The notes under the pieces were generated by a model that ran no database searches, was not told the DNA's origin, and saw only the letters and a list, made by a program, of their open reading frames with translations. From Planctomycetota bacterium (GTDB lineage Bacteria; Planctomycetota; PLA2; JAEUHO01), in contig CBDCTJ010000007.1 in NCBI GenBank assembly GCA_965222115.1, positions 1,472,001 through 1,536,000 on the forward strand: a stretch of 64,000 bases of DNA, in the 5' to 3' direction. Every line of letters starts with the position of its first letter. Within the stretch, counting starts at the first letter, position 1. The position numbers and the translations under genes were made by a program. Shown here one piece after another: positions 55,317 through 64,000 of this stretch.

Positions 55317-56129
55317 CTACGCCAAATCAAACACCAAGAATTCCGCGTTGCTCACGCCAACAATGTTCAGGGTTCCGGCATCGCTCGTTCGTACGGCGTC
55401 ACCTGCCGTCAACTGCACACCGTTCACTCTAATGGCGCCGCGGGCGACTTGGATCCACGCGTGTCGCTTGGGCTTGACAACATGGGCAACGCGCTTCTTC
55501 GCATCGAGTAGCGACGCATACACAACAATGTTCTGATTGATGCGAACGCTCGTCCCCGCACCATTTGGCGTGGCGATGGGCCGCAGTTGATTTTTGCGCG
55601 TTGCCGTGGGAAACGCTCGTTGCGCGTACCCAGGACGGTAGTTCTTGCGATCGGGCGTGATCCAAATCTGCAACAGGTGCAAGCGTTTCTTGCTTGACGC
55701 GTTGAACTCGCTGTGACGGATGCCGGTACCCGCGGTCATGCGTTGGATTTCGCCGGGCTTAATGACGCCGCCGTTGCCCAAGCTGTCGCGGTGGCGGATT
55801 GAACCTTCCAAGACATAGGTAAGAATCTCCATGTCATTGTGAGGGTGCATGGGAAAGCCGCGGCTGGGTTGAATGACGTCCTCATTAATCACACGCAACG
55901 AGCGAAAACTCATGTTGCGCGGGTCGTGATAGTTGCCGAACGAGAAGCTATGTTTCGCTTTGAGCCAACCATGATTGACTTGGCCGCGCTCGTGACTTCG
56001 ACGAACGACAAGTCGGGGTCCCTTCGCTTTGCCCGCAGCTGCCAGAGCTGGCGTGAGGGCAATACCCGCGGCGGCCAGAGACACCTTCTTGGTGAGGTCT
56101 CGGCGATTCATAAGCTTCCTGCGCTTCAT
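55317..56129 (-). CDS. Pirin-family protein (YhhW-like) with twin-arginine-like signal peptide
   Basis: HGWL..HSFSF, LRVINED, GFPMHPHNDMEI, MTAGTGIRHSEFN, LQIWI; AAGGAG RBS. Confidence 0.92.
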   Translation of the reverse strand: MKRRKLMNRRDLTKKVSLAAAGIALTPALAAAGKAKGPRLVVRRSHERGQVNHGWLKAKHSFSFGNYHDPRNMSFRSLRVINEDVIQPSRGFPMHPHNDMEILTYVLEGSIRHRDSLGNGGVIKPGEIQRMTAGTGIRHSEFNASSKKRLHLLQIWITPDRKNYRPGYAQRAFPTATRKNQLRPIATPNGAGTSVRINQNIVVYASLLDAKKRVAHVVKPKRHAWIQVARGAIRVNGVQLTAGDAVRTSDAGTLNIVGVSNAEFLVFDLA

Positions 56130-56366
56130 GGGTGTCTCCTTGGTCCGGGGGTGCATCATTGCACGGCCAGTTGATACCTAGTGACGCTCGATTCGGTGTA
56201 CTTGTTTCAACAAGCAAATTGATGGTGGGCCGATCGTCCCTGGAAGAGCCGGTGTGGCCCCATTTGTTGAGGTCGGGGCGAGGCGCGTCCACAGTCCCCC
56301 TACAATCTTTCCCGGTCCGAATCGTCTACACTATCGATCGGCCCCATTCAGGGCACCGGAGGTCTC

Positions 56367-57557
56367 ATGGTCCAGCGCACTGTTCTTTTTGCGGCGGCGG
56401 CAATATTGCTCGCCTCGATTCCGGTGGCCCACGCCAAGGATGAAGCACCGTCCGATAAGCAGGTCGTGTCGCTCAAGTATCGAACGCTGCCAAACATGTT
56501 CGAGACGCATATGCCGGCGCTCCGCGTGGTGCCCATCAAGGACTCGATACCGATTCCGCATCAGGGCGGCGACGGATTCGCGGTGAAGCTCGACGGTACC
56601 GACTTGTTGATCGACAACAATGGCGATGGCAAGACCAACTTGATCGTGCGGCGGAAAGACAAAGAATCGGGATTGATCCGGTTAAACGCCAAACGCAAAG
56701 ACGGCACGCCCTTTACCTATGCACTGCGTCTTCGCAAGAGCGGCACCTGGGTCTTTCACACGTCGGGCGCCATGGAAGGTACGGTGGGCGATACACGCAT
56801 TCGCCTCATCGATCAGAATCACAACGGAACCTACAATGATCTCGGCGAGGACGCCGTGGTGATTGGCGCATCCAAGTATGCGAGTTTCCTCAGTCCTGTT
56901 TGGTCGCTCGATGGAAAGCTCTACATTGGAAAAGTGACCAAGGACGGCGAGAAAATCACTCTTACCCCCTACACGGGCAAGACCGGCACGCTCGATATGA
57001 CCTCGTCGTTTAAGAGCGGCGGACGCTTGGCCTCAGCCATTGTGAAGACCACCAAAGGCACGTTTTCATTTGATGTTGCCCAATTAGCGGAAGACACCGG
57101 CGGCAAAGTCACACTACCGATCGGCGCCTATGAACTCGTCCGCGGGACGCTTCAAAAGGGTACCTATCAAGTCACCATTGAACCCGGCGACATGAAGCCC
57201 TTCCGCGTGCGCACAAACAAGCACACGACTCTCGCCTGGGGTGGACCGATCCGAGCCGAGTTTGCCTACAATCGCAAGGGTGACAAAGTTCAGTTTTCGC
57301 CCAATCTGGTGTGGTATTTCGGAAGCGCTGGCGAAAAGTACTCGGGCTGGACACCGGAAGCGAAGTCACCGGAATTCATCGTGTACCGCGCCGACGACGG
57401 CAAGGAGGTGGCACGCGGCAAGTTCGTGGCGTGTACCTGAGGCCCAGCCTGGATCCCGGCCGCCGTGAGCGTGCCCGCCGACATCGACATTCGCGTTGAA
57501 ATGAACGACAGTCGTTCCATTTTGGGCGGAAAAATCGAGAGCAAACTGCGCGAGTAA
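56367..57557 (+). CDS. Exported hypothetical protein; ends at 57440 if TGA is a stop, or at 57557 if the TGA at 57438-57440 encodes selenocysteine
   Basis: GGAGG RBS and signal peptide ending AHA. In-frame TGT ACC TGA followed by 38 sense codons and a SECIS-like hairpin. Confidence 0.7.
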
Positions 57558-57736
57558 TTGTCGTCTGAAGCGCTGTCTGCAAAGCCTTTGTGGTTGACCC
57601 CTGTGTCGTGCCTGCGCGCGCGTTCTATTTTGGCGTAAAGTACGCGTTCAGCCCGATTCGGCGCACGCGGAGCAATTGGAGCGCGACAATACTCATGGTG
57701 TCACACCGCCAAGCGCCTCGGTTCCAATTCAACAGC

Positions 57737-60172
57737 ATGGGTGCCATGCGTGCGTATGCACTGCTGGCGTTGATCACTTTGTTGTTGGCCCCATTGGGTG
57801 CACGGGGGTGGGCAAGCGAGACGACTGCCGTTGATGCCGTTCCGGATTCGTTTCAAGGAGGTCGCGTACCGCTGCGCATTGTCGGTGGGCACCTCGTCGT
57901 TCGCTGCGACATGAGCACGCCGCAGTCGCGCATCGCCGCGCACCTGCTGGTTGATTTCGAGAATCCGTGTGGCCTCGCCCTGCACAACGCTGTGCCGCAA
58001 AAGGAAGGGCTCGCGATTGATAAGTACGGTCACCCGATCACGCTCCACTTCCCCGGATTTCGAATCGTGCATCGTGACGGGTATTCCCTCGGCACGCGCC
58101 TTTACGATCAACTCACCAAAGACTACGCAGTTGAGCTTGGCGAGACGGCCATCGTAGGCACGCTCGGTGCCGAGTTCTTGAGTCGCTATCACATCGTCTT
58201 GGACGTTGGCAATGGGTACATGGAACTCTCGGCTCCCAAGGCTGTACCGACCACGACCAGCAAAGACGACGCGAAAGAGACCCATGAAAACGAAGGAGCG
58301 AGGCCCGTGGGGGAGCCGCTTGCCGATGATGAGGTCGAGTTCTCGCTTATGGGCCATACGGCATGGTTGCCTGCCCGCTTGGACGGACGCAAGATCGGCG
58401 CACTGCTCGTGGGCACGGCCCACACCGATTCCCGTCTCGCACCATTCGTAACTCGCATGCGCCGCAAGAACAAAGACGCCGCATTGGCCGTGGGAGCCTT
58501 GTCGCTCGACGAGCTCGGCGAGTTTCTCGTGGGGGAACCGGTCGATTACCACCCCGATCGCGCGGTAGGTGTGATGGGTCTTAATCACCTGCGACACATA
58601 CGCCTCGAACTCGACTATGCGCGGCGCCGCGCGCGTCTGGGTGTCTCGCGCCCGCCCAAGAATCGTGACGCCGAGCGCGACTACTTCCGTGCAATTCGCG
58701 CAGAGACTCCGGATGCGTGGTTGGCGTTTCTCGCTGCACATCCCAAGTCGCCGCGTCGTGCACGTGCCGCCGAGTATTTGGTGGAAGCACTCAAGTCGTG
58801 GGGCACCGACGATCCGAAGCAGCTCACCGCAGCCGTGAAGCACTACGCCGAGACGCGCGATGTCAAGCGTCGCACGTCGCGGCTCTACGATCTCATGCGT
58901 GAGTTTCGAGAGCTGGGTTGGAACGACGCCGCGATCAAGGCAGGCGAAGCCGGACTCAAAAAGGGCGCCAAAGACTTAGATCCAAATGCGATTCATAAGA
59001 TCCACGCTGTGCTCGGTGAGATGCAGCTCGCTAAGGACGATGGCAAGAAGGCGTGGAAGCATTTGCTTTCCGCTGCGTTTGGTATGCCCGAAGACGGACT
59101 GGTAAATCTTCTTCTCGGTCGCTTTTACGAATCCAAGGGCCTCCATCGCCGCGCGTTTAGTCGCTACATTCAGGCCACAACCGATGCGGCCAGTGGGCCG
59201 CAAGCGTTGGTTGCGCTTGAGGCATTGCAAAGACGAACCGGCAAGACCATGCGACTGTCGGCCGACACCATCGAGCGCGCAACAGCAGGCAAAGTGAAAG
59301 GGTTCGGTGCGCCCGACGAGTTTGAAGCCGATGAAAAGACCGACACCAATCGCTGTGTGTTGCTTGAAAACTTTACATGTGCCCACGGGCGGCCCACCGG
59401 CGACTGGGTCATCGACGGTGTATTGACGCACTATCCTCGTAAGCGCGTAGCGGTCGTATCGCATCACCTTCCCAACCCCGCGATGGAACCGCTCATCACA
59501 AAGCTTGGCGAAGCGCGCGCCGCGTTTTACGAAAACGATGCTAGCGGGATTGCCATCCTCAATGGAGAGCGACCGTTACGCATTGGGGGGCGTCCTCGCG
59601 AAGTTGCCAAGATTTACGCCGCGCTCAAGCCCATCGTGAGCGAGCCGCTTGCCGACGCTTCGAAGTACACGTTCGAAGTCAAAGCAACGGTAGACACGGA
59701 ACGCGAAGGCGGGCCCGCGGTTGTGGGCAGCGTTACGCTGAAGGGGCCAAAAGCCAACAACTTGCGTGTTCACATTCTGTTGGTTGAACAGGGCGTAGTC
59801 TTTCCGGGTCGCAGCAAGGTCATTGTCCATCGCATGGTGGCGCGGACACACCTCACGGAGCAGATTCACGGTGATGCCTATAAGCCCGAGGGGAAGGCAA
59901 ACGAGCAGTCGTTTTCCTTCGACAAGGCGCTGGCGCCTGTGGGCGAGGCGTGCGAAGCGTATGTCGCGTCACAAAAAGAGCGTGGCGCGGTGGTGTCGTG
60001 GCGCCATGAGCTCGACCCCGAGCAGCTTCAGATCGTTGCCTTTGTGCAGGACGCGCAAAGTCGCGCCGTGTTGCAGGCCGTTCACTACGAAATGAATGTG
60101 GAGACGAAGAAAGCACGTACCAAAGTCGATGCCAATGACGACGAGAAGAGCGGGGACGCGAACGACCAGTGA
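57737..60172 (+). CDS. Exported multidomain protein: degenerate retropepsin-like domains, TPR-like helices, Omp28/thioredoxin-like C-terminus
   Basis: VPLRIVGGHLVV, LLVDFE, GTLGAEFLSRYHIVLD, GVMGLNHL; WKHLLSAAFG; VLLENFTCAH, VVSHHLP, IVAFVQD...VLQA. Confidence 0.7.
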   Translation: MGAMRAYALLALITLLLAPLGARGWASETTAVDAVPDSFQGGRVPLRIVGGHLVVRCDMSTPQSRIAAHLLVDFENPCGLALHNAVPQKEGLAIDKYGHPITLHFPGFRIVHRDGYSLGTRLYDQLTKDYAVELGETAIVGTLGAEFLSRYHIVLDVGNGYMELSAPKAVPTTTSKDDAKETHENEGARPVGEPLADDEVEFSLMGHTAWLPARLDGRKIGALLVGTAHTDSRLAPFVTRMRRKNKDAALAVGALSLDELGEFLVGEPVDYHPDRAVGVMGLNHLRHIRLELDYARRRARLGVSRPPKNRDAERDYFRAIRAETPDAWLAFLAAHPKSPRRARAAEYLVEALKSWGTDDPKQLTAAVKHYAETRDVKRRTSRLYDLMREFRELGWNDAAIKAGEAGLKKGAKDLDPNAIHKIHAVLGEMQLAKDDGKKAWKHLLSAAFGMPEDGLVNLLLGRFYESKGLHRRAFSRYIQATTDAASGPQALVALEALQRRTGKTMRLSADTIERATAGKVKGFGAPDEFEADEKTDTNRCVLLENFTCAHGRPTGDWVIDGVLTHYPRKRVAVVSHHLPNPAMEPLITKLGEARAAFYENDASGIAILNGERPLRIGGRPREVAKIYAALKPIVSEPLADASKYTFEVKATVDTEREGGPAVVGSVTLKGPKANNLRVHILLVEQGVVFPGRSKVIVHRMVARTHLTEQIHGDAYKPEGKANEQSFSFDKALAPVGEACEAYVASQKERGAVVSWRHELDPEQLQIVAFVQDAQSRAVLQAVHYEMNVETKKARTKVDANDDEKSGDANDQ

Positions 60173-61737
60173 CAGAGCGACCAACCTCCACGGCCACCGT
60201 CCATCCGGATGACATTCGCAGCGACCTCAATGGGCTTGTGTCGCGCGTGCGCACGGTTCGTACGCAGCGGCGCCTGGGCAATGCGCTGCGCCAATCGTGG
60301 AAGATGTCGGCATGGTGGTTGCTGGTTGGGCCTGTGTTGTTGGCTCTCGGAACATGGTTATCGCTTTGGGATCCGCCAACGTGGCCGTGGATTGCCGCGT
60401 CGGCCCTTGGGCCATTCGTACTCGATGTCATTCAGGGCCTAGTGATTGCGTCGCGCGTCCGCGAATCGCGTGAGACATGCCTGAGTATCGTGGACTTGCA
60501 GTGTGGGCTTAAAGATCGACTCGTGAGTGCCGACGAGTTCCTTCATGAATCCCAGGCGCGCGATGAATCGACGCCTTCGACCGAATCTCTGCGACACGCA
60601 TTTGCGACTGCTGCCTTGCACGACGCCGTTCCTTATCTCGACGTGGCCAAGCGCCATGAGATTGAGCCGCAGGCCCGCGTGAAGGGTGGTTCCCGTTGGT
60701 TGCTCGCGCTTCCCTTACTAGGAGCCCTCGCAGCCCTGTGGACCTTGCAGCAGGAGTCGAGCACGCCCACGCCGTCTAAGGATGTGGCTGTCGTGAGTCC
60801 ACCACCGAATCAGGTGTCGAACGACGAGCCGCGCAAATCGCCGAGTGACACCCACGCCACACCGCCGAAAGACCCCAAGCGCGAGGATCCATCCAAGTCG
60901 CCGAGTCTCAAAGAACGCGATGCGTCCGCGGCGGAAAAGAACTCCGTCGAAGACAAGAAACAACCTGCGAGCAAAGAAGAGCTTCGCGCCATGGAGTCCG
61001 AAGCACGAGCCGGTGCATCGGCCGACGCATTGACGCGTGCTCGACCCAGCACGTCGCTTGGCAACCCCAGCGAGCATGCAGAGAAGGCCAAGCGTGTTCC
61101 GCAAAAGCCGAAGAAGAGCAAGGTCAAGTCCAAACCAGTCGCGGAAGTGAAGAAGCCTCCTTCCAAGCGTCCCGAGAAGCCTGAGCAAGCGGGTGCCACG
61201 GCCGGTCGCGGCTCGTCGAAGGGAAGCAAGAGCAACCCAATCGCCAATCCGTGGTCGAGTAAAGATCAGGCGCCGGATGAAAAGTCGGACGACCTTGAGT
61301 TTGATGAAGACGTGGACGACGAGTTTGACGACTCCGATAGCCGCGGGGGGATGCAACCCAACTTACGCGATCGGCGACCGCCTGTGAATCGTGATCTTGG
61401 CATTGGCTTTGGCAACAAGCCCAACCCCGATGCCAATGGACGCGGCGGTCCCGGGCAACGCAAAAAGTCGCGCGGCACGGCGTCGCTTATTCTTGGCGTG
61501 CCCATTCCAGATCACGTGAAGGGTTTGTCCGGTCCCGGCACAACGAAGGTTACGCACGAACGCACCCGGCCCATGCCCGAGCGCGTGGGACCCCTCGACG
61601 CGCGGGCCGGCACACGCCGCTCTGCGCCCACAGGCTTTGCCTGGCAACCTGCGCTCGCACCGTGGTCGCGCGCATTGATTCGACAGTTTTTTGCTCGTTC
61701 CGATACGCCGAACGCGGCGTCCCCGAGTGAGGAGTAA
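60169..61737 (+). CDS. Membrane protein with long charged low-complexity region (MoxR-cluster associated)
   Basis: Several N-terminal TM segments, GLKDRLVSADEF, K/S/P-rich linker; GTGA overlap with the previous gene. Confidence 0.7.
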   Translation: MTERPTSTATVHPDDIRSDLNGLVSRVRTVRTQRRLGNALRQSWKMSAWWLLVGPVLLALGTWLSLWDPPTWPWIAASALGPFVLDVIQGLVIASRVRESRETCLSIVDLQCGLKDRLVSADEFLHESQARDESTPSTESLRHAFATAALHDAVPYLDVAKRHEIEPQARVKGGSRWLLALPLLGALAALWTLQQESSTPTPSKDVAVVSPPPNQVSNDEPRKSPSDTHATPPKDPKREDPSKSPSLKERDASAAEKNSVEDKKQPASKEELRAMESEARAGASADALTRARPSTSLGNPSEHAEKAKRVPQKPKKSKVKSKPVAEVKKPPSKRPEKPEQAGATAGRGSSKGSKSNPIANPWSSKDQAPDEKSDDLEFDEDVDDEFDDSDSRGGMQPNLRDRRPPVNRDLGIGFGNKPNPDANGRGGPGQRKKSRGTASLILGVPIPDHVKGLSGPGTTKVTHERTRPMPERVGPLDARAGTRRSAPTGFAWQPALAPWSRALIRQFFARSDTPNAASPSEE

Positions 61738-61739
61738 GC

Positions 61740-62741
61740 ATGAGCACCGCCGTAGACCAGGCTCACACAGCCGCGTCCGAATTCAAATCCGTCCACGCGG
61801 CCATACGCGAACAGGTGTGTCGCGTCATGGTGGGCCAAGACGATGTGATTGACGGCGTGCTCACCGCATTGTTTGCCGGCGGCCATGTGTTGCTCGAAGG
61901 TGTACCGGGACTTGGAAAGACGATGCTCGTACGCGCACTGGGTCGCGCGCTCAATCTCAAGTTCTCGCGCATTCAGTTCACACCCGACATGATGCCCGCT
62001 GATATTCAGGGGACGCATGTGTTGTCGGATCGTGGCGATGGCACCCAGGAGCTCACCTTTCAAGAAGGTCCGCTGGTTGCGAACTTGATCCTGGCCGATG
62101 AAATCAATCGCGCCACACCCAAGACGCAGAGCGCGCTGCTCGAGGCCATGCAAGAGGGGCAGATCAGCGTCGGCAAGCGCACGATTACCCTTGAGCAGCC
62201 CTTTGTCGTAATGGCCACGCAGAACCCGGTTGAGCAAGAGGGCACCTATCCACTGCCCGAAGCACAGCTCGACCGCTTCCTGTTCAAGCTCATTGTGGGC
62301 TATCCCAAGGAAGAGGAGTACCGCGAGATCCTAAAGCGCACCACCGGTGCGAGCGAACCCGAAGTAAACGCGGTCTGCGACGGCGAGACTATTATGAACA
62401 TGCGCAAGGTCGTGCGGGAAGTGCCTGTGGCCGATGCCGTGCAGGCCTATGCTGTGCGTCTGGTACTGGCAACCCAACCCAGTCACGGCACGGCCCACGA
62501 GCAAGTGCGCAAGAACGTGTCGCTGGGCAGTAGTCCACGCGGTGCACAGGGTCTCTTGTTGGCAGCCAAAGTCGCCGCGCTACTCGACGGTCGCTTTGCG
62601 GTGAGCACCGACGACATTAGGGCGGTTGCACGTCCTGTGTTGCGCCATCGCGTACTGCTCAACTTTGGTGGCCAGTCCGAGGGCCTTACGTCGGACGCGA
62701 TTCTTGAGCACGTTATCGCGGGTGTTCGCGCCGAGTCGTAG
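61740..62741 (+). CDS. MoxR-family AAA+ ATPase
   Basis: GHVLLEGVPGLGKT, RIQFTPDMMPAD, LADEINRATPKTQSALLEAM, ATQNPVEQEGTYPLPEAQLDRF. Confidence 0.97.
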   Translation: MSTAVDQAHTAASEFKSVHAAIREQVCRVMVGQDDVIDGVLTALFAGGHVLLEGVPGLGKTMLVRALGRALNLKFSRIQFTPDMMPADIQGTHVLSDRGDGTQELTFQEGPLVANLILADEINRATPKTQSALLEAMQEGQISVGKRTITLEQPFVVMATQNPVEQEGTYPLPEAQLDRFLFKLIVGYPKEEEYREILKRTTGASEPEVNAVCDGETIMNMRKVVREVPVADAVQAYAVRLVLATQPSHGTAHEQVRKNVSLGSSPRGAQGLLLAAKVAALLDGRFAVSTDDIRAVARPVLRHRVLLNFGGQSEGLTSDAILEHVIAGVRAES

Positions 62742-62788: not shown

Positions 62789-63673
62789 GTGCAGGCTAAC
62801 GAGCTGTTCGATGCCGAATTCATGGCCGCCGTGTCGCGGTTGCGCATCATTGCACGCCGCGTTCCGCGAGGAGGTCGTCCCGCGGAGCAGCGTTCGCAAA
62901 AGCTCGGTAGCGGCATGGAGTTTCGCGACTTTCGCCCATATGTAGCGGGCGACGACATTCGTTCCATTGATTGGAATATCTATCGACGTCTCGGCAAGGT
63001 GGTGTTGCGGCTGTTCGAAGAGCAAGAAGACTTGCCGCTCTACCTGCTTCCCGATACGTCGGGCAGCATGGCGTTGGAGTCACCGCCGCGGGCCCACGCA
63101 GCATTGCGCGCCACGCTCGCGCTTGCCGCCGTTGGCCTAGGCCAGCACGATTCCGTTGGCGTCTATCCCTTTGCCGATCGCCCCATTACGCCGTTGCGAC
63201 TCGGCGCGGGCGGTCGTCGCATCTACCGCGTAGCCGACTACCTTGCGGGACTAACGCACGAAGGCGGAACCGAATTGGTCGACGCGGTTAGGCGCTTTGC
63301 GAGTTTCCGTATGCGGCGTGGGCTCCTTGTTTTGGTGTCGGACTTTTTCGATGACCGCGGCATTGAGGCCATCACAGAAGCTCTTGGCGTCGTTCGACAC
63401 AAGCTCGTATTGATTCAGTTGGTTCGGGAAGGAGATCGCGAACCCGCCATGCGCGGCGACGTACGTCTCGTCGACTGCGAAGCGGGCGATGCGCAAGATG
63501 TGGCAATCACATCCGATGTCTTGAAGCGCTACCGCGAGGCCTACGATCACTTTTCGCGCGGCCTTACGGAGTTCGCAACACGACGAAACGCGGGCCTGCT
63601 CCGCCTCAACGCCGACGACGACGTTGTCGAGCAGCTAGCCGAACTCTTCGCGGGCGGGAGGATTCACGCATGA
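62789..63673 (+). CDS. DUF58 (vWA-like) protein
   Basis: GSGMEFRDFRPYVAGDDIRSIDWN, DTSGSM, LVSDF. Confidence 0.93.
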   Translation: MQANELFDAEFMAAVSRLRIIARRVPRGGRPAEQRSQKLGSGMEFRDFRPYVAGDDIRSIDWNIYRRLGKVVLRLFEEQEDLPLYLLPDTSGSMALESPPRAHAALRATLALAAVGLGQHDSVGVYPFADRPITPLRLGAGGRRIYRVADYLAGLTHEGGTELVDAVRRFASFRMRRGLLVLVSDFFDDRGIEAITEALGVVRHKLVLIQLVREGDREPAMRGDVRLVDCEAGDAQDVAITSDVLKRYREAYDHFSRGLTEFATRRNAGLLRLNADDDVVEQLAELFAGGRIHA

Positions 63674-64000
63674 CGTCCGTGACCCCCGTAGCGTTGCAGT
63701 TTCTAACGTTTCCCTGGTGGGGGGTGCTGCTGGGCCTTGCGGGCATAGCCGCGCTGTTGTTCGTGTTGCACCGTCTTCGCATTCGTTTTCGCGAAGAGGT
63801 CGTACCCACCACTATGTTTTGGAAGCGCGCCCTGGATGAACGCCAGGCGCGTGTGCTCATGCAGCGCTTCCGCCACCCGTGGACGTATGTCTTGGCGACA
63901 TGCATCGCGTCTTTGTTGTGGTTGGCGGCGTCGCGGCCAGCGAGTGACAACACGATCACACATGCGGACGCAGTCGTTCTTTGGGATACTTCGGCGAATG
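63670..64000 (+). CDS. BatA-like double-TM / vWA protein, 5' part (runs off the right edge of the window)
   Basis: Manual translation MTSVTPVALQFLTFPWWGVLLGLAGIAALLFVLHRLRIRFREEVVPTTMFWKR...SRP...VVLWDTSAN (start of a MIDAS-like motif); ATGA overlap with DUF58. Confidence 0.82.
   Translation, partial: MTSVTPVALQFLTFPWWGVLLGLAGIAALLFVLHRLRIRFREEVVPTTMFWKRALDERQARVLMQRFRHPWTYVLATCIASLLWLAASRPASDNTITHADAVVLWDTSAN

Follow-up and report, generated by a model that had tools for sequence, protein, structure and literature searches.

A probable selenoprotein family of Planctomycetota with a vicinal Cys-Sec motif, encoded ahead of a Bat-like MoxR gene set

A 64,000-nucleotide stretch of the genome of a Planctomycetota bacterium (contig CBDCTJ010000007.1 of assembly GCA_965222115.1, positions 1,472,001 to 1,536,000; hereafter the window) raises the question of whether one of its genes really ends at its apparent stop codon. 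Under translation table 11, the open reading frame (ORF) at 56367-57440 starts with ATG at 56367 and encodes 357 amino acids, ending in ...KFVACT followed by TGA at 57438-57440. Behind this TGA the frame remains open for 38 codons, up to a TAA at 57555-57557, which would add the tail GPAWIPAAVSVPADIDIRVEMNDSRSILGGKIESKLRE. A sequence-only reading of the locus had noticed this open frame, together with a hairpin at 57458-57475 that bears a bulged U and whose loop starts 23 nt after the UGA, and had proposed a candidate novel selenoprotein; the coordinates and the features of the hairpin all proved right on the sequence. The best overall explanation, to which we give a probability of roughly 0.85, is that the gene encodes an exported selenoprotein of 396 residues, in which a selenocysteine insertion sequence (SECIS) directs selenocysteine (Sec) to position 358, and which may have a redox role together with a Bat-like envelope system. 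The gene and the elements that bear on its decoding are the following.

56358..56362, + strand: Shine-Dalgarno-like GGAGG, 4 nt 5' of the ATG, from direct reading of the sequence
56367..57557, + strand: predicted selenoprotein gene, 396 codons including Sec358, then TAA; homologue alignments extend beyond the TGA
56367..56435, + strand: predicted signal peptide MVQRTVLFAAAAILLASIPVAHA of the general secretory type, with cleavage between AHA and K, judged from the sequence; predicted local distance difference test score (pLDDT) of 51-55 for residues 1-30 in the structural model
57432..57434, + strand: TGT codon of Cys356, the probable partner of Sec358; Cys directly precedes Sec in 69 of 79 Sec forms
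57438..57440, + strand: UGA predicted to be read as Sec358; of 84 distinct homologues, 79 have TGA in this column and 5 have Cys
57458..57475, + strand: predicted SECIS hairpin GGCCGC[CGUGA]GCG-U-GCC, with bulged U57472, loop at 57464-57468 and -8.4 kcal/mol

A six-frame search of 61 related genomes returned nine close homologues (E <= 2e-59), and all nine carried a single in-frame TGA within an alignment that ran on beyond it. In the alignment of read-through translations (A1), the TGA shares one column in 10/10 sequences and is followed by a conserved tail of the form ...G-C-U-G-x-G-F-x-P-x-x-V-S-V-P...W-A-F-G.... The sample was then widened in two ways, by searching 401 Planctomycetota genomes with a profile and by scanning species-representative genomes. 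Gene models were anchored by tblastn; choosing the longest open frame failed because G+C-rich DNA has long spurious frames. Among the 98 loci examined, the motif was present in 96, which reduced to 82 distinct sequences, 79 of them carrying TGA and the other 3 Cys. Six further full-length, stop-free matches were fetched and comprised two more Cys forms and four Sec-less relatives. The totals are therefore 84 distinct homologues, mostly from Planctomycetota, with TGA in 79 and Cys in five (L098, L056, L136, L145 and L146). Neither TAA nor TAG stood at the Sec column in any of the 79 sequences; the codon was always TGA. The TGA form was found in at least 56 of the 401 sampled Planctomycetota genomes, plus two metagenome-assembled genomes (MAGs) of Verrucomicrobiales.

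The residues around this column are less uniform than the column itself. Cys immediately precedes Sec in 69 of the 79 Sec forms, which makes CU the family consensus, while, apart from the Sec-Sec sequences named below, the remaining Sec forms have their Cys at -2, as in the window protein, at -3 or at +2, or lack it (L090). The CxU redox motif named in the sequence-only reading is thus true of the window protein and exceptional for the family, in which the pair is normally adjacent and sometimes UU. Two adjacent TGA codons (Sec-Sec) were found in 4/79 sequences (L062, L083, L133 and L110). The last of these belongs to a cultured strain whose genome is complete, Rohdeia mirabilis Pla163; its double TGA lies at L110:7081-7086, in the place of the usual Cys-Sec pair, with one SECIS hairpin downstream. 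The literal string G-C-U-G occurs in 14 of the 82 distinct sequences (TGCU class, L047-L051, L058 and L132).

Some more distant sequences were also seen. L032:1432-2514 and L037:1081-2286 are distant relatives whose alignments end early, so that they counted as having no stops, yet both end at a TGA and read on, as CFS-U-GG... and EYG-U-GGIC...RVP, respectively; L037 also carries the RVP motif, together with a hairpin of 8 bp. The Sec-using family probably extends beyond the 84 members counted. In addition, the phylum commonly has proteins of ~720-770 amino acids (e.g. L033, L035, L041 and L139) whose N-terminal half is helical and whose C-terminal half is related to residues ~120-340 of the selenoprotein; they are without the Cys-Sec loop. 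When an ~860-aa neighbour and the ~750-aa Sec-less relatives were compared with each other and with the partner gene of the selenoprotein, no similarity was found.

The codons behind the UGA appear to be translated. V369 and P370 are the same in all of 35 diverse members, and conservation reaches at least 90% at G359, V367, F386 and G387. When codons were compared across 76 sequences, the third-position entropy was 1.59-1.87 bits at V377, A385 and G387, the highest value being that of Gly387, for which all four codons are used. Third positions downstream thus vary freely while the residues stay, which indicates that selection there acts on the protein. In the AlphaFold2 model, the residues after the UGA form strands 365-368, 375-383 and 388-394 of a C-terminal sandwich, with pLDDT 92-97. 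A product ending at the UGA would therefore be short of the final three strands of a domain that is modelled with confidence.

The hairpin behind the UGA was compared with the published bSECIS model, which specifies 3-9 nt for the apical loop, a G at one of its first two positions, a distance of 16-37 nt from UGA to loop and a minimum free energy <= -7.5 kcal/mol (PMC13188914). The window hairpin lies within these limits, with the 5-nt loop CGUGA, G at loop position 2 followed by U, a distance of 23 nt and -8.4 kcal/mol. For the upper stem the model specifies 4-16 bp; the window hairpin has six pairs, split 3+3 by the bulged U, and other branches have six uninterrupted pairs. The stem also covaries. 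Pair counts on an 80-sequence alignment (A2) gave 89.8% paired cells, against 18.8-55.5% when the 3' partners were slid by 1-3 columns. Pair 34-42 occurs as GC in 61 sequences, AU in 15, UA in 3 and GU in 1, that is, in three Watson-Crick types and unpaired in 0/80, while pair 32-45 occurs as UA in 37, UG in 20, CG in 10 and otherwise in 13. The observed covariation score was reached by 0/500 shuffles, a count that is not a probability because the sequences are related. The 5' partner of pair 34-42 occupies the first position of a codon for Ala, Thr or Ser, whereas its 3' partner, 8 nt downstream, is a third position at which changes are synonymous. Constraint on the protein cannot account for such a coupling.

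The hairpin is also kept where the residues change. One branch with other residues (SEYSGRVP or SAYTGRVP) has the hairpin GUACNC[CGGGN]GNGUAC in the same place, so that two branches carry distinct stem sequences at one position (GUACNC/GNGUAC and GGYCRC/GYG-U-RCC). Moreover, third-position entropy at codons 364-367, which cover the 5' arm and the loop, was 0.00-0.19 bits, against 0.91-1.95 bits at 66 other conserved four-fold codons. Departures at P364 or V365 come only from the Cys form L098, which also supplies one of the two at V367. Two Cys forms, L098 and L145, no longer have the hairpin; in L136 it is weakened, and L056 and L146 retain it. This pattern gives modest support, from five sequences, to a relaxation of constraint after a change from Sec to Cys.

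The genome also contains the machinery for Sec insertion. SelA (416.3 bits), SelB (346.6 bits) and tRNA-Sec (71.6 bits) all scored above their cut-offs. SelA was found in 290 of the 401 sampled Planctomycetota genomes, and selenocysteine use appears to be very common in the phylum. It was present in 56/56 of the sampled genomes with the TGA form, a co-occurrence cross-checked between tables by eye and among related genomes that are not independent. SelA was present too in the three Cys-form genomes searched (G383, G418 and G419).

Several observations pull in the other direction. Folding of an 81-nt stretch was not more stable than that of shuffled sequences (z +0.93; 168/200 shuffles at least as stable), the hairpin alone gave z -0.60 (52/200 shuffles at least as stable), and an Rfam scan of 57300-57700 at E <= 10 returned only two chance matches, to a long non-coding RNA and a microRNA. 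The features of the single sequence are, on their own, no more than chance in G+C-rich DNA; they rise above chance because the homologues show a conserved TGA column, covariation of the stem and suppressed synonymous variation at the hairpin. The selD gene of the genome is also broken in this assembly. SelD (150.6 bits) has a single gene, which is of the Sec type (GGU-AAK) and carries many frameshifts that split it over three frames. It lies outside the window (L018; genome G000, contig C1, ~654443-655201, minus strand), within ~440 nt of the contig end. The selD genes of relatives are likewise of the Sec type, with one TGA each. Contigs from three public runs differ from the assembly in selD by at least 12 indels of 1-2 nt and by almost no substitutions; these runs may be the source sample and hence are not independent, and their contigs cover the selD stretch in pieces, none of them spanning it. 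Applying eight of the indels to one 306-nt stretch restored a single open frame with 56% identity to residues 45-147 of a relative's SelD. On this one stretch, the frameshifts appear to be an assembly error and not the mark of a pseudogene.

Taken together, these features indicate that, very probably, the UGA at 57438-57440 is decoded as selenocysteine and the gene is a real selenoprotein gene. The sequence-only reading had looked to conservation past the TGA, to TGA or Cys in that column, to a SECIS element and to Sec machinery in the genome. The 79 TGA and 5 Cys forms among the 84 distinct homologues, the covarying hairpin and the presence of selA, selB, tRNA-Sec and a Sec-type selD, with its apparent assembly errors, bear this out, and its candidate is now strongly supported.

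The function of the protein was approached through its fold, its gene neighbourhood and its fusions. The AlphaFold2 model of the whole protein (pLDDT 91.1, predicted template modelling score 0.85) consists of three all-beta parts, and DSSP assigned to it only beta strands and one 7-residue helix, so that the alpha/beta fold of thioredoxin is absent. The Cys-Sec motif sits in a glycine-rich loop between strands 347-352 and 365-368. The parts of the model, with immunoglobulin and fibronectin type III abbreviated to Ig and FN3, are as follows.

56448..56981, + strand: N-terminal all-beta domain, residues 28-205; pLDDT 95.0 when modelled alone, with loops DNNGDGKTN and DQNHNGTYND
56982..57251, + strand: middle beta-sandwich, about residues 206-295, from the AlphaFold2 model; VIA-align Z ~6 over residues 205-296/322
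57252..57554, + strand: C-terminal Ig/FN3-like beta-sandwich, about residues 296-396; FN3/Ig matches at Z 5-6 over 295-396, with the last three strands after the UGA

The two loops of the N-terminal domain are of the DxDxDG type, and D83, D87, G88, D149, Q150 and G154 are invariant or nearly so. A comparison of this domain with solved chains by VIA-align gave none at Z 5 (best 4.9), which does not imply a novel fold. With the whole model, Foldseek against the PDB gave no convincing match (TM-scores 0.08-0.18), and VIA-align gave generic Ig/FN3 matches only, at Z ~6. The N-termini of the homologues in the family alignments are hydrophobic, as is that of the window protein, and the signal peptide would direct the selenoprotein out of the cytoplasm.

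Downstream of the gene lies a series of genes on the same strand, and the proposal that the selenoprotein works with the Omp28-like, MoxR, DUF58 and BatA genes is backed by synteny. In the sample of 66 loci with flanking sequence, homologues of these neighbours recur in 39-52 of the loci, as given below for each gene counted.

57695..60172, + strand: conserved gene of ~825 codons from ATG (ORF open from GTG at 57590), whose product has a signal peptide, a middle part that is helical and, at the C-terminus, a weak likeness to Omp28; homologue in 52/66 loci
60169..61737, + strand: conserved 522-aa gene with a membrane-spanning N-terminus and a long Lys/Pro/Ser-rich region, matching no Pfam or NCBIfam family; homologue in 41/66 loci
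61740..62741, + strand: MoxR AAA+ ATPase (Pfam AAA_3, 206.6 bits); homologue in 41/66 loci
62789..63673, + strand: DUF58 protein (Pfam DUF58, 103.1 bits); homologue in 39/66 loci
63670..64000, + strand: start of a BatA-type gene (559 aa) that runs out of the window (Pfam BatA, 28.6 bits, cut-off 25.9)

Beyond the window (genome stretch L140) follow a VWA protein of 855 aa (VWA, 58.4 bits) and a TPR protein of 2250 aa (TPR_19, 71.8 bits), so that adjacent MoxR (AAA_3), DUF58, BatA, VWA and TPR genes make up a Bat-like MoxR-VWA gene set. The homologue of the ~825-aa gene stands directly downstream of the selenoprotein gene in its 52 loci. The match of this gene to Pfam Omp28 reached 22.2 bits, below the cut-off of 34.9. 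It also has a faint match to NF045500 (Omp28-related selenoprotein; 18.2 bits, cut-off 200), and no in-frame TGA was seen in it. On the other side of the selenoprotein gene, a pirin/quercetinase-like gene (Pirin, 129 bits) lies divergently on the minus strand at 55317-56159 of the window, 207 nt from the selenoprotein start.

The gene set resembles the Bacteroides aerotolerance (Bat) operon in its MoxR, DUF58, BatA-N-terminal, VWA and TPR genes. In the literature on that operon, reducing agents are reported to have rescued a bat mutant of Bacteroides fragilis in part, and Bat proteins were proposed to reduce periplasmic proteins or to export reducing power, that is, to act in periplasmic redox balance, with their function nevertheless called elusive (PMC3557215). 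The present operon differs in having three extra conserved genes before MoxR, and the passages of PMC3557215 on Bat mention no selenoprotein. A search of full-text literature for selenoprotein together with MoxR returned one unrelated paper and none linking the two.

Two Verrucomicrobiales MAGs also bear on a redox role. At L117:3026-4624 and L121:3303-4889, the selenoprotein ORF extends, with no stop between, into a ResA/TlpA-like domain that carries WCGPC or WCRPC and matches NF002854 (E 3.1e-29), and the same MoxR-type operon lies downstream in both cases. This fusion suggests that a thioredoxin of that type recycles the Cys-Sec site, and the conserved Bat-like operon suggests a shared envelope function. 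The mobile and replaceable partner of Sec (Cys at -1, -2, -3 or +2, or a second Sec) fits a nucleophile and a resolving residue on a flexible loop.

Against such a function stand both the protein and its surroundings. The all-beta fold is not thioredoxin-like, and L090 has no Cys near its Sec. Among the 66 loci, thioredoxin-like genes beside the selenoprotein gene amounted to the two fusions and weak upstream matches in two loci, and the 64-kb window contained none. The operon is not constant either: 14 of the 66 loci lack the first downstream gene, nine of them in the GGCUGGGF...FGG branch, two through cuts at contig ends, and three others that have at least 4 kb of downstream sequence without the operon. 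The nine loci of that branch lack the operon, and in the two inspected (L075 and L128) the neighbours were unrelated. Finally, bat deletions in Leptospira biflexa gave no oxidative-stress phenotype (PMC3557215). We therefore put forward the redox function of the Cys-Sec protein alongside a Bat-like system only tentatively, at slightly less than even odds. The weak upstream matches are those of two Fuerstiella MAGs (L092:5282-5509 and L095:5491-5718), where thioredoxin-like sequences lie just upstream with 25-26% identity and E ~4e-5 to 6e-5.

The alternative that survives best accepts the selenoprotein and changes its chemistry. The Cys-Sec pair would bind a soft metal or metalloid (e.g. Cu, Hg, Cd or As) with no redox cycling, and the protein would serve the MoxR-VWA chaperone system as a client or as a part that handles metals. 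In the catalogue of PMC13188914, metal binding or action on organometals is annotated for several selenoproteins with CU or UxxU motifs (MerB-like SaoL, HgcA, MbdU and a putative mercuric reductase), Sec-Sec and Sec-only variants would still bind metals, and the absence of a thioredoxin-like fold suits this explanation. By contrast, electron transfer is suggested by the fused thiol-disulfide oxidoreductase domain of the TlpA/ResA type, and no metal transporter or resistance gene turned up among the scanned neighbours. On balance, metal binding in place of redox cycling is unlikely, yet it deserves to be kept in mind beside the redox role. TlpA-type proteins also reduce copper-site cysteines, and for this reason the redox and metal explanations can overlap.

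The explanations that deny selenocysteine altogether fare much worse. If the UGA were an ordinary stop, the product would have 357 residues and the downstream conservation another cause. Gene callers do end the protein there, as 19 of 22 database homologues are 331-370 aa long, and single-sequence folding of the hairpin is unremarkable. But the codon is TGA and never TAA or TAG in 79/79 sequences, five homologues have Cys in its column, the residues behind it are conserved while third codon positions vary, termination would delete three strands of a confidently modelled domain, and SelA accompanies the TGA form in 56/56 genomes, so that an ordinary stop is highly improbable. Recoding or readthrough of the UGA as a standard residue (Trp, Cys or Gly) is no more credible: the other genes inspected in the window and the genome are open under table 11, with no reassignment of TGA, Cys is the only alternative residue in the column, a covarying SECIS-type hairpin lies at the expected distance, and Sec machinery co-occurs with the TGA forms. 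Least probable of all is that faulty assembly or a recent nonsense mutation (e.g. of TGC or TGT) produced the TGA of the window, since, despite the indel errors elsewhere in the assembly (the selD region near a contig end), the codon is shared by 78 other distinct sequences that were assembled independently, among them the complete genome of a cultured strain, and the selD errors are indels and not substitutions.

With selenocysteine as the preferred decoding, the position of the protein among known families was considered. The window protein matched no family in Pfam or in NCBIfam (the latter at E <= 0.1), and 33/35 family members were likewise without a Pfam or NCBIfam match (the latter at E <= 0.01), the other two matching only through their fused ResA/TlpA-like domain. 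A 2026 review tabulates 119 prokaryotic selenoprotein families with domain models (PMC13188914). None of the Pfam and NCBIfam models of these families matches the present one, families with only cd or PTHR identifiers lying outside the scan, and adjacent UU is not among the motifs in the table of that catalogue. The sequence-only reading could not assign the protein to a standard selenoprotein family, and none was found for it in Pfam, NCBIfam and the tabulated 119 families. In full-text literature, no such family was found described in Planctomycetes; supplements were outside the search, and S9 of PMC4807772, on selenoprotein candidates in Planctomycetes, and the supplements of the GOS paper could list a member.

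Comparison with individual families gave the same result. GOS_A and GOS_B, as described in PMC2398784, have mostly Cys homologues, and the NCBIfam model of GOS_B does not match the present family. GOS_C, or Omp28-related selenoprotein (NF045500), is similar in being a marine-bacterial selenoprotein family recovered from metagenomes (PMC2398784), but it is thioredoxin-like with UxxC, whereas the present family is all-beta with CU, and its NCBIfam model does not match either. With the catalogued CU families KCU-star/DUF466 (NF033934), SaoC (NF040734), MerB-like SaoL (NF040728), HgcA (NF040863), MbdU (NF045648) and Csac_0668 (PMC13188914), the family shares an adjacent Cys-Sec and a SECIS within the coding sequence, but their NCBIfam models, like all others, give no match to the window protein at E <= 0.1.

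The nearest functional analogue is animal thioredoxin reductase, which has a glycine-flanked adjacent Cys-Sec on a flexible segment near its C-terminus. In that enzyme, the C-terminal Gly-Cys-Sec-Gly centre forms a selenenylsulfide that carries electrons to the substrate. The present protein differs in having no flavoprotein or pyridine-nucleotide domain and in carrying its site in a loop of an Ig-like sandwich, ~38 residues from the end. It is also bacterial and appears to be exported, and no sequence relationship was found; the enzyme is an analogue and not a relative. The family is a widespread one that was not found catalogued, with a non-thioredoxin fold and a vicinal Cys-Sec or Sec-Sec pair, heading a conserved Bat-like operon.

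The following mechanism is proposed. SelB and tRNA-Sec would decode the UGA at 57438-57440 as Sec, directed by the in-coding hairpin at 57458-57475, and translation would go on for 38 codons, which supply the three final strands of the C-terminal Ig-like domain. The signal peptide would then send the selenoprotein out of the cytoplasm, where Cys356 and Sec358 on their glycine-rich loop may cycle between a selenenylsulfide and the reduced selenol/thiol; in the Sec-Sec relatives the pair would form a diselenide. An extracytoplasmic thioredoxin of the TlpA/ResA type could re-reduce the site. The selenoprotein would thereby be the redox-active first component of an envelope system that further comprises the ~825-aa protein, the 522-aa membrane protein, MoxR, DUF58, BatA, VWA and TPR proteins. 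It is a bolder and rather doubtful step to suppose that, throughout the phylum, the vicinal Cys-Sec (in some members Sec-Sec) on an extracytoplasmic Ig-like domain is the redox-active working part of the Bat/MoxR-VWA complex.

These results have several consequences for the family and its hosts. Gene callers truncate its members everywhere, as the lengths of the database homologues illustrate, and searches for Sec/Cys pairs would tend to miss it because only 5/84 members use Cys. Two adjacent Sec codons served by one SECIS represent a kind of motif that the table of the 2026 catalogue does not contain (PMC13188914). The prokaryotic selenoproteome would gain a widespread family, and experimental tests are feasible because one carrier, Rohdeia mirabilis Pla163, is in culture and has a complete genome. 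For a gene cluster whose function has been called elusive (PMC3557215), the selenol-based redox or metal site offers a testable chemical lead. If the redox-active role proves true, the Bat/MoxR-VWA envelope complex would gain its first concrete chemistry.

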